DNA from: a virus
Virus record (IMG/VR): IMGVR_UViG_3300043607_000027
Coordinates: 1-41,083 of that record
DNA length: 41,083 bases
Reading direction: 5' to 3' (one strand)
This document shows positions 26,585 through 28,041 of the stretch, piece by piece. The notes beneath the pieces were generated by a model. That model was not told where the DNA came from, searched no databases, and saw only the letters and a program-made list of their open reading frames with translations. Numbering within the stretch: position 1 is the stretch's first letter; each line of letters opens with the position of its first letter. A program made the translations under genes and the position numbers.

Positions 26585-26730
26585 GCGCGTGGCTTAAAAC
26601 AGACGATACGGGCCGCGTCTGGATCGTCGATGCCGAAGGCTGGGAATACGCGGGACCGTATGACACCCCGGAAGAGGCGCTGAAAGCTCACCCGGAAGCC
26701 GAAAGCGAGGACGCGCCATGGACGAGGTGA
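26581..26730 (+). CDS. hypothetical 49-aa acidic early protein
   Basis: ATGA overlap. MSAWLKTDDTGRVWIVDAEGWEYAGPYDTPEEALKAHPEAESEDAPWTR. Below the track cutoff. Confidence 0.45.
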   Translation: MSAWLKTDDTGRVWIVDAEGWEYAGPYDTPEEALKAHPEAESEDAPWTR

Positions 26731-27002
26731 TGAGGGGGATCGTGGAGGATGACCGCGCGCGGCGTCTGGGAGCGGCGCTGACGGCGTTGCGGTGGACCTC
26801 GGGGGATCTGGCGGAGGTGCTTGGCGTCGGCGTCAGCACCGCGCGGAGGTGGCGGGAAGGGCTATATCCGGTCCCGGACGCCGTCATGGCCTGGATCGAG
26901 GGCCTCGCCGGCGCGGTGGCGGCCGCGGGGCCGCCGCCGGTGCGGGTTCGGGTTGGGCATCGACCGTCGAAGGAGATGGACGAATGGGCTGAATGGGGGT
27001 GA
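26718..27002 (+). CDS. putative HTH DNA-binding protein
   Basis: 94 aa. TSGDLAEVLGVGVSTARRWREGLYPVP reads as a helix-turn-helix. Confidence 0.55.
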   Translation: MDEVMRGIVEDDRARRLGAALTALRWTSGDLAEVLGVGVSTARRWREGLYPVPDAVMAWIEGLAGAVAAAGPPPVRVRVGHRPSKEMDEWAEWG

Positions 27003-28000
27003 GCGCATACTACAACGAGAACGATCCCGCCGCCGCCGCGTGGCTGCGGGAGCTGATCAAAGCGGGAGAGATCGCGGACGGCGTGGTCGATGACCGTGGA
27101 GTGGAGGAGGTCACGGCGCATGACGTTCGAGGGTTCACGCAATGCCATTTCTTCGCCGGCATCGGGGCATGGTCGCTTGCCCTCCGGCGCGGCGGCTGGG
27201 ACGACGAAAGGCCGGTCTGGACCGCCAGCCTCCCCTGCCAGCCCTTCTCCAACGCCGGGAAGCGAGAGGGAGTCGAGGACCGGAGACACCTCTGGCCCGT
27301 GTTCTTCCGGCTCATGCTCGCCGGCAAGTGCCCGTTTGTCCCGGTCCTTGGCGAGCAGGTTAGCGGCCGAGGCGGCCTCGAATGGTTCGACCTTGTATCG
27401 GCTGACCTGGAAGGTGAGGGATACGCCGTCGGGGCGACAGATACCTGCGCTGCGGGGTTCGGCGCGCCGCATCTTAGACAACGATTGTATTGGCTGGCCG
27501 ACGCCCAAATCGATCGACAGCACATCGAACCGGGAAAGCGCGGAGAGCCGAAAGGCGCGGGGCTCGTCGGGATCGATCAACCTGACGACGGCGTCGGAGC
27601 TGGCGGGCTGGCCGACGCCGATGGCGGGCACGTCGGCCAGGGGCGGAAACAACGAAGCGGGGAACAACGACAGCAGCCGGAGGACGGTGGCGCTGACGGG
27701 CTGGGTCTCGCCGACAGCGGGGGATCATGGACGCGGCGTGAAGCCGCCGCGTTCATGGGACGCGGGGATACCCCTGTCGCAGCAGGTGGCGGGGATCGCC
27801 CCGGCCCGGTTAACGGCCACTGGGCAGCTGCTGACTGGCTGCCGTGCCGGGACAACAAATGGCGGCCAGTTGAACCCGGCGCATTCCCGCTGGCTTCAGG
27901 GGTTGCCGCCCGTGTGGGACGCCTGCGCGGCTATGGCAATTCCCTCTGTGTCCCGCAGGCGGAAGCCTTCGTCAGGGCGGCCATCGACGCCCTCTGGTGA
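26993..28000 (+). CDS. DNA (cytosine-5) methyltransferase (annotated frame; central part probably not the selected frame)
   Basis: 335-aa ORF. Motifs I HFFAGIG, IV PCQPFS, VI GEQV, VIII GAPHLRQRLYW and X GYGNSLCVPQAEAF. Residues ~170-310 are G/R/D/A-rich filler. See the finding on the two frames. Confidence 0.75.
   Translation: MGVSAYYNENDPAAAAWLRELIKAGEIADGVVDDRGVEEVTAHDVRGFTQCHFFAGIGAWSLALRRGGWDDERPVWTASLPCQPFSNAGKREGVEDRRHLWPVFFRLMLAGKCPFVPVLGEQVSGRGGLEWFDLVSADLEGEGYAVGATDTCAAGFGAPHLRQRLYWLADAQIDRQHIEPGKRGEPKGAGLVGIDQPDDGVGAGGLADADGGHVGQGRKQRSGEQRQQPEDGGADGLGLADSGGSWTRREAAAFMGRGDTPVAAGGGDRPGPVNGHWAAADWLPCRDNKWRPVEPGAFPLASGVAARVGRLRGYGNSLCVPQAEAFVRAAIDALW
27360..27930 (+). other. alternative-frame segment (frame of ORF 27090..28013) encoding Dcm-like TRD and motif IX
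   Basis: This frame translates to ..GSTLYRLTWKVRDTPSGR..GWPTPKS..LAGWPTPMAG..GWVSPTAGD..QLNPAHSRWLQGLPPVWD. Hand-counted GC3 is ~84% here, against ~68% for the annotated frame over 27492..27929. Confidence 0.5.
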
Positions 28001-28041
28001 GGATTGGTGGTAGCGGGAAGATGAAACCGAGGGGGTGAACG

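Follow-up and report, generated by a model that had tools for sequence, protein, structure and literature searches.

Multispecific C5-methyltransferases of Bacillus phages (SPR, phi3T and rho11s) are single chains that carry a variable number of tandem recognition modules between motifs VIII and IX. Other C5-methyltransferases consist of two polypeptides. M.EcoHK31I of Escherichia coli (YGGCCR) is a natural heterodimeric enzyme of this kind (Lee, Kam and Shaw 1995; PMC2836561, PMC3404938). Its beta polypeptide is encoded within the alpha gene in another reading frame, with motifs I–VIII plus X in alpha and motif IX in beta; both chains are required, and internal methionine codons serve as starts (PMC2836561, PMC3404938). 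Changes that are silent in alpha and remove the start codons of beta led to loss of activity, which was restored by beta on a second plasmid (PMC2836561, PMC3404938), and N-terminal deletions of beta progressively weakened its association with alpha (PMC2836561). M.AquI of Agmenellum quadruplicatum is a serial split, in which alpha comprises motifs I–VIII plus a portion of the variable region and beta the remainder together with motifs IX–X (PMC3404938). Here we analyze a C5-methyltransferase gene (26993–28000) in the viral record IMGVR_UViG_3300043607_000027, of which the whole stretch of 41,083 nucleotides is referred to as the window. The explanation we favor, and hold to be quite likely, is that this locus encodes a two-polypeptide C5-methyltransferase whose beta gene lies inside the alpha gene, in its +1 frame.

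The hallmarks of a C5-methyltransferase are divided between two frames. The initial annotation, made from the DNA letters alone, had placed motifs I–VIII and X in one frame and recognition-like repeats with motif IX in the other. The translations bear this out: frame A reads FFAGIG, PCQPFS, EQV, PHLRQRLYW and GYGNSLCVPQ, and frame B contains all of the elements pointed out there, i.e., GWPTPKS, LAGWPTPMAG, GWVSPTAGD and motif IX at 27867–27920. Instead of a single-chain layout, with motifs IX and X and the recognition domain in one chain, motif IX and the modules sit in the +1 frame. The third-position G+C contents that had been counted by hand were also reproduced; between 27492 and 27929 the value is 0.842 in frame B versus 0.676 in frame A, and in the flanks of frame A it is 0.80 (26993–27200), 0.89 (27200–27360) and 0.79 (27929–28000). 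The gene has 68% G+C and the window DNA 64%. Same-strand dual coding spans ~890 nt and is deeply conserved. The beta stop lies 13 nt past the alpha stop in the window and 13–19 nt after it in the window's clade, compared with 5–60 nt before it in most relatives. The two frames and the features of alpha are the following:

26993–28000, plus strand: open reading frame (ORF) A, the predicted alpha subunit, 335 amino acids (aa); PF00145, phrog_363, TIGR00675
27090–28013, plus strand: ORF B, the predicted beta subunit, 307 aa, or 297 aa if translation begins at ATG 27120; frame +1 with respect to A
27149–27166, plus strand: alpha motif I, FFAGIG, S-adenosylmethionine (AdoMet) binding; G56 and G58 invariant (115 sequences)
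27233–27250, plus strand: alpha motif IV, PCQPFS, with the catalytic cysteine; P81, C82, Q83, P84, F85 and S86 invariant
27353–27361, plus strand: alpha motif VI, EQV, counterpart of ENV; E121, Q122 and V123 invariant, aligned with ENV of M.HhaI
27467–27493, plus strand: alpha motif VIII, PHLRQRLYW; P159, R162 and R164 invariant
27503–27829, plus strand: alpha filler, residues 171–279; frame-A identity 0.13–0.33, predicted local distance difference test (pLDDT) score 32–47
27929–27958, plus strand: alpha motif X, GYGNSLCVPQ, leading into the C-terminal helix; G315 and N316 invariant

In the arrangement we propose, alpha (from 26993 or 26999 to 28000) would comprise motifs I, IV, VI and VIII, about 100 residues of disordered filler, a hairpin and the motif X helix. 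Beta would be translated from its own Shine-Dalgarno site and ATG 27120, within alpha, to 28013, and would consist of a leader of ~70 residues, a conserved helix-hairpin, GWPTP-led recognition modules and a motif IX-like block. The two chains would assemble into the equivalent of a single-chain C5-methyltransferase, beta supplying the small (DNA-recognition) domain that is absent from alpha, and the alpha filler would exist only because the ribosome must cross the beta-coding stretch to reach motif X. The corresponding parts of beta are located as follows:

27103–27110, plus strand: Shine-Dalgarno-like GGAGGAGG, 9 nt upstream of ATG 27120; frame A reads VEEV there
27321–27464, plus strand: beta helix and beta-hairpin (SLASRL...GSTLYRLTWKVRDTPSGR...ALRGSARR), overprinted on alpha motifs VI–VIII
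27495–27866, plus strand: beta region resembling a recognition domain, with three modules led by GW(P/V)(T/S)P and then a GPARLTA-type segment up to motif IX
27867–27920, plus strand: beta motif IX-like block QLNPAHSRWLQGLPPVWD; Q250 to W258 at least 90% conserved or invariant

The layout recurs in relatives of the window gene. The sample comprised 83 fetched related loci with gene G+C contents of 50–70%, from which subsets of 74, 73, 69 (unique genes) and 66 genes entered the individual analyses; loci L039, L012, L074 and L083, which have long alpha ORFs, were left out of the statistics. Both window A and window B are matched in 81 of the 83 loci, where B invariably occupies the +1 frame with respect to A. 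In tblastn searches against GenBank phages, A and B hit identical positions of the records, in frames that differ. Phage isolates with the two-frame layout include those of Aeromonas, Xanthomonas, Salmonella (epsilon15) and E. coli, and Aeromonas phage AeroV_348 carries the same A/B pair. Among the relatives, frame B becomes open ~58–118 nt past the start of A and remains so until a few tens of nucleotides from its stop, i.e., over 230–390 codons, and the third frame contains 6–25 stops. Both frames are plainly open in E. coli phage Bas76 and Salmonella phage epsilon15, where the G+C content of the locus is ~51%. In the four loci left out, the alpha ORFs are much longer (442–770 aa); L074 has two frame-A matches with overlapping query ranges (1–245 and 168–333), which suggests an internal duplication of the middle region or a fusion to another domain.

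The openness of each frame was compared with that in synonymous-codon shuffles, in which one protein was held fixed and stops were counted in the other frame. With B fixed, none of 66 genes had a frame-A stop in the middle, versus 1.96 expected per gene (summed log10 P = −71), and with A fixed none of the 66 had a frame-B stop in the N-terminal part, versus 0.46 expected (summed log10 P = −18); these sums treat related loci as independent and so overstate the significance, which counts against our explanation, although the direction is unambiguous. For the window alone, openness was not beyond chance (P = 0.63 for A in the middle, 0.87 for B in the N-terminal part), and the matter is therefore not resolvable from one sequence. 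Openness of the second frame becomes significant because both frames match throughout the related loci and stay open down to 50% G+C. The window-only values also favor a different origin of the split, namely indels introduced by sequencing or assembly, or the decay of a pseudogene in which two frameshift mutations compensate each other, since a long open second frame is not unusual in a single gene of 68% G+C. However, the same layout is present in 81 of 83 loci including isolated phages, purifying selection is visible in both frames, and a second assembly (Logan SRR35212529) yields a contig that encodes the exact alpha protein (P0121) and is identical to the window over 7008 bp. The compensating indels or assembly errors that the initial annotation had considered are refuted by these relatives and by the identical second assembly, and we assign this origin, pseudogene decay included, a negligible probability.

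Frame B carries a start signal. The Shine-Dalgarno-like site precedes ATG 27120, and the ATG farther upstream at 27090 is without such a site. Relatives have a conserved frame-B ATG at +109 to +127 of A, with one at +67 to +141 in 71 of 74 unique genes, and a Shine-Dalgarno-like motif lies 4–12 nt upstream of the frame-B ATG in 57 of the 74. The commonest form of the start site is gaAAGGAGyatygaaGATG, which codes for ERSIEDV in alpha. The arginine codon of ERS is AGG in 37% of cases compared with 8% gene-wide and the serine codon is AGY in 77% compared with 45%; the codons chosen in alpha therefore spell out the ribosome-binding site of beta. Other assemblies are in line with this position, many of the 150 best B-type gene calls made on them beginning at profile positions 10–20, near the conserved start. 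Together, the ATG, the Shine-Dalgarno motif and the frame that is kept open predict that beta initiates on its own at the internal ATG.

Codon-position entropies over the 69 unique genes (positions A1/A2/A3 and B1/B2/B3) indicate which frame is selected where. Between 26993 and 27290, variability is by far the highest at A3, and B identity is 0.23–0.50; A3 thus behaves as the wobble position, so that only A is selected in this part and B is a by-product. In the motif I stretch, amino-acid identity in frame A is 0.85, and among the codon positions A3 varies the most. Farther downstream, two stretches are conserved in both frames:

27383–27500, plus strand: dual-coding zone 1, both frames conserved, with alpha motifs VI–VIII
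27833–27922, plus strand: dual-coding zone 2, with alpha DWLPCRDNKWRPVEPGAFPLASGVAARVGR (small hairpin) and beta ...GGQLNPAHSRWLQGLPPVWDA

At the beginning of zone 1 (27383–27412) the A1/A2/A3 entropies of 0.79/0.57/0.69 are all constrained, with identities of 0.64 in A and 0.68 in B, and up to 27500 the A3 entropy is 1.0–1.3 compared with ~1.5 upstream. The beta consensus of this zone is GSTLYxLTWKxRxTPSGRxIxALRASxRRTSxxxxxGWPTP. The following stretch (27503–27800) is variable overall. Within it, B3 is the most variable position of the GWPTP blocks (entropies of 0.90/0.79/1.36 and 1.03/0.80/1.44), and identity is 0.51–0.56 in B versus 0.29–0.33 in A; given this wobble at B3 and the higher identity of B, frame B is the selected frame in the blocks. 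In zone 2, all three positions are constrained throughout 27863–27922, with entropies of 0.70/0.41/0.52 and identities of 0.73 in A and 0.77 in B at 27863–27892; the consensus is DWLxCRDGKWRPVEPGxFPL in alpha and GGQLNPAHSRWLMGLPxxWD in beta. From 27923 to 27982 the wobble is at A3 (1.17–1.57 in the motif X stretch, where it is once more the most variable position) and only A is selected, i.e., motif X. The initial annotation had left it to the homologues to indicate which frame is conserved, and they conserve B in the repeat blocks, A at the ends and both at the transitions. In the window's own clade, the middle is ~31% identical in either frame and too diverged for informative codon-position counts.

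The conservation of both frames bears on programmed double ribosomal frameshifting, by which a +1 shift near 27494 and a −1 shift near 27920 would join the frames into one A-B-A chain. The order of the conserved parts suits such a chain: motifs I–VIII in A, the recognition region and motif IX in B and motif X in A are collinear with gp70 of Mycobacterium phage ShiLan, a single-chain actinophage enzyme. However, neither transition zone of the window contains an X_XXY_YYZ heptamer, and there is no homopolymer run in the gene. Such a heptamer is found in one of 73 relatives in the first zone and in five of 73 in the second, at positions that are not fixed. Moreover, conservation extends to both frames for ~120 nt at one transition and ~90 nt at the other, of which a single shifted chain could make no use, and the beta segment GSTLYxLTWK lies ~55 nt upstream of alpha motif VIII, such that one chain cannot hold both. 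Frameshifting would also render two properties superfluous, namely that A is open through the middle and that B is open for ~250 nt before its conserved residues begin and is equipped with a Shine-Dalgarno site and an ATG of its own. Two stretches conserved in both frames are what two separate products would predict, and one frameshifted chain would have no need of them. With both frames conserved at the transitions and without a slippery site, the programmed recoding proposed in the initial annotation is unsupported, and we judge it very improbable indeed. The shift points given there, ~27494 and ~27920, do mark the collinearity with single-chain enzymes, but no ribosomal shift is needed at either. 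The nested second gene giving a two-polypeptide enzyme, which had been listed beside it, is supported by the dual conservation, the beta start signal and the homology to gp70.

Alpha is composed of a catalytic large domain, a disordered insert and the C-terminal motif X helix, and its domain matches and model identify it as a predicted C5-methyltransferase catalytic domain. A comparison of both translations with PF00145 had been recommended earlier; A matches over residues 77–169 (E 2.9e-9, 37.3 bits against a cut-off of 22) and B gives nothing. phrog_363 (PHROG, ‘DNA methyltransferase’) matches A over its full length (E 3e-70), and motifs IV, VI and VIII of alpha align with M.HhaI (residues 71–171, E 8e-15), which, together with M.HaeIII, is among its best matches in both sequence and structure. 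In the AlphaFold model of alpha, based on 115 homologues, residues 1–170 form a confident catalytic domain (pLDDT 86–96) that includes motif I, residues 182–279 are disordered (pLDDT 32–47), a weak hairpin follows at 281–293 (strands 281–284 and 290–293), and the C-terminal helix (320–334) has a pLDDT of ~94. Foldseek searches of this model against the PDB retrieved C5-methyltransferases with a probability of 1.00 over ~190 aligned columns, including 8yf3, M.HaeIII (1dct), M.HhaI (2i9k) and DNMT2. The best match (model of 26993–27997) was 8yf3, with E 5.7e-6 and a template modeling (TM) score of 0.29, and covers the general catalytic fold only; 8yf3 is described as a DNA cytosine C5-carboxymethyltransferase with carboxy-S-adenosylmethionine (Cx-SAM), which is not informative on the group transferred here.

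Between motifs VIII and X, alpha is non-conserved and disordered. This filler is a by-product of the beta frame read one base out of register, of which only the openness is kept. The selection on the middle thereby speaks to the possibility that alpha alone is functional and that frame B is a relic or a by-product of conservation at the DNA level. Standard pipelines do annotate frame A alone, and only A passes the Pfam cut-off. However, the wobble of the middle is at B3, and frame A there has an identity of 0.13–0.33 and a pLDDT of 32–47, which points to B as the selected protein. Frame B is furthermore kept free of stops, its start and Shine-Dalgarno site are conserved, and alpha without beta has no counterpart of the small domain of single-chain enzymes. 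We therefore consider a functional alpha with a meaningless frame B to be very unlikely.

In the nested-gene explanation, beta is the part that reads the DNA, and its homology agrees with that role. A beta profile of 121 sequences aligns with residues 202–359 of ShiLan gp70 (hhalign probability 99.6%), a segment made up of LLPTPxAxDG repeats and RLAPAFSEWMMGWPAGW, which lies in frame between motifs VIII and X of that protein; the motif IX-like block of beta aligns with RLAPAFSEWMMGWPAGW. The alpha profile aligns with gp70 over motifs IV–VIII only. By these alignments, beta is the counterpart of the recognition domain and motif IX of a single-chain enzyme, as the initial annotation had supposed in calling frame B a target-recognition region. 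Modules begin at 27495, 27609 and 27702 in the window. Upstream of them, the helix (68–88) and strands (93–115) are the sole confident part of the AlphaFold model of beta (pLDDT 78–88), and G89 to K98, T102, P103 and L111 to S114 are at least 90% conserved. We infer by analogy that this helix-hairpin docks beta onto alpha, because the deletions that weaken the association of the M.EcoHK31I subunits are N-terminal in beta.

Several observations weigh against the nested-gene explanation, and some of them would suit a beta that is a separate protein, e.g., a regulator or an inhibitor of host defence, rather than a methyltransferase subunit. Beta has no match in Pfam, NCBIfam or PDB sequences, and PDB sequences gave none with the 121-sequence profile even at E ≤ 10. 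There are 2485 beta homologues, and the 120 of them that were listed are all without a Pfam domain. When beta is modeled by itself, AlphaFold confidence is low (mean pLDDT 62), and most of the model falls outside the confident helix-hairpin. The leader of ~70 residues, which is read across alpha motifs I–IV, is not conserved, and initiation so far upstream lacks an explanation. That both proteins are made, that they bind each other and that both are needed for activity is what we infer from the locus. Finally, the recognition domain of M.EcoHK31I has been assigned to alpha (PMC2836561), and here the recognition-like modules are in beta, where selection in the middle acts on frame B and the recognition stretch of a single-chain enzyme can be aligned with these modules; either the division of labor differs from that in M.EcoHK31I or it was assigned differently there. 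Against a separate role, the beta profile is homologous to the recognition and motif IX stretch that lies in frame within a single-chain C5-methyltransferase, and the PHROG families matching B, phrog_31772 and phrog_1008 (E 1e-27 and 4e-25), are annotated ‘DNA methyltransferase’. Being nested within alpha, beta is also found together with it in every case. A separate role of beta thus seems improbable to us.

The beta frame appears to carry the whole, cassette-like recognition region. Genes contain 0–6 modules of ~30–40 aa, each led by GW(P/V)(T/S)P, and gene length tracks module number (r = 0.68). The close relatives L004–L008 are 88–95% identical in the flanks and ~31% identical in the recognition region, which holds different cassettes in different order: x-A-V in the window, N-A-F in L004, C-F-N-F in L005 and N in L007. 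Of 203 modules, 19 contain one and the same cassette, PTPMAGTPAQNGNNxAGNNDSSRKTVxLAG. Such a pattern suggests shuffling of cassettes among relatives and possibly multiple specificities. A more far-reaching possibility, which we put forward tentatively and consider less probable than not, is that, throughout a very large family of phage enzymes of this type, the nested beta chain constitutes the entire specificity subunit and can be exchanged. Its 0–6 cassettes would be acquired, lost and rearranged even among close relatives, with openness as the sole demand on the overlapping alpha frame, and may each have their own target, as in the multispecific enzymes of Bacillus phages. If so, thousands of database entries of this family, each recorded as a single ‘DNA cytosine methyltransferase’, would represent the catalytic half only, and overprinting would serve phages in general as a means of joining a catalytic core to a specificity module that evolves fast.

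The family is large. At E ≤ 0.001 there are at least 7999 alpha homologues and 19,500 cluster representatives (50% identity) of beta-type calls, and numerous prophages as well as well-known phages, e.g., epsilon15, belong to it. Annotation by gene callers is uneven and covers one frame, either of them or the two together. In the Xanthomonas phages PhiXhv-5 and PhiXhv-18 (loci L002 and L003) the two frames have been deposited as separate coding sequences (CDS) named methyltransferase or DNA methyltransferase:

L002, 1504–2523 and 1586–2518: CDS pair
L003, 1504–2496 and 1586–2491: CDS pair

Elsewhere, most records list frame A alone, on which a ‘hypothetical protein’ is at times superimposed. 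The copy in a prophage of E. coli Ec1117 (NZ_CP126602.1, L088, 2492–3092 and 3200–3661) is given by the Prokaryotic Genome Annotation Pipeline (PGAP) as two pseudogene fragments of a DNA cytosine methyltransferase, labelled ‘incomplete; partial in the middle of a contig’, likely because the non-conserved alpha filler breaks the protein alignment. The comparisons outlined above suggest that the nested architecture is universal in this very large phage and prophage family, which is annotated as a single protein. The annotated alpha alone is probably inactive or non-specific, and cloning, modeling or predicting phage methylation and anti-restriction from frame A alone would miss the DNA-reading chain. 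The locus also offers a clean test case for the detection of overlapping genes, in which selection is seen switching between frames.

The gene is located between a gene for a helix-turn-helix (HTH)-type regulator and a primase gene on the 41 kb phage contig, with DNA polymerase, exonuclease and helicase genes upstream and a terminase gene downstream. The upstream HTH-type ORF (26718–27002) matches a PHROG transcriptional repressor (E 4e-5) and ends with TGA at 27000–27002, within ATGGGGGTGA. A start of alpha at GTG 26999 would give a GTGA start/stop overlap with this ORF and the N-terminus VSAYYNEN, which resembles that of many homologues (MTAYYNE, VSAYYNE); because of this overlap and the homologue-like N-terminus, the true start of alpha may be GTG 26999 instead of 26993. 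An ORF of 357 aa runs antisense to the methyltransferase gene (26594–27667, minus strand), and other long ORFs overlap known genes across the window. Long antisense and overlapping ORFs of this kind are as would be expected at 64% G+C, and no sign of coding was found in them.

With respect to described enzymes, the locus shares with M.AquI that a C5-methyltransferase is composed of two polypeptides that must assemble, which is predicted here. Unlike in M.AquI, alpha retains motif X, and the beta gene lies inside the alpha gene, in another frame, rather than downstream. M.AquI, which the initial annotation had cited as a precedent, is therefore apt as a split enzyme of two polypeptides but is not the closest one, M.EcoHK31I being closer (PMC3404938, PMC2836561). 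Motifs IV–VIII of the single-chain ShiLan gp70 align with alpha, and its LLPTP-repeat region and RLAPAFSEWMMGWPAGW align with the modules and motif IX of beta; unlike the present gene, gp70 has all of these in one frame. It is also without a counterpart of the beta helix-hairpin or the C-terminal hairpin of alpha, both of which lie in the dual-coding zones. The variable tandem modules, 0–6 of ~30–40 aa, resemble those of the SPR, phi3T and rho11s enzymes.

M.EcoHK31I is matched in architecture, as judged from its description: the beta ORF (27120–28013) lies in another frame within the alpha gene, alpha holds motifs I–VIII plus X, whereas beta holds motif IX. The conserved helix-hairpin is found at the place equivalent to the N-terminal part of M.EcoHK31I beta, which binds alpha. 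In contrast to M.EcoHK31I, beta here extends over almost all of the alpha gene, past which it runs by 13 nt in the window, and the gene is part of a phage replication module, not of a restriction-modification system (restriction genes were not searched for). With the epsilon15 gene as query, 68 chromosomal copies were retrieved from E. coli genomes, among which nothing was identifiable as the EcoHK31I system; the one copy inspected lies within a prophage. The literature searched contained no account in which this phage family is treated as a two-chain enzyme with nested genes. By analogy, the locus would be a new member of the kind defined by M.EcoHK31I and would extend that single experimentally studied case to phages.

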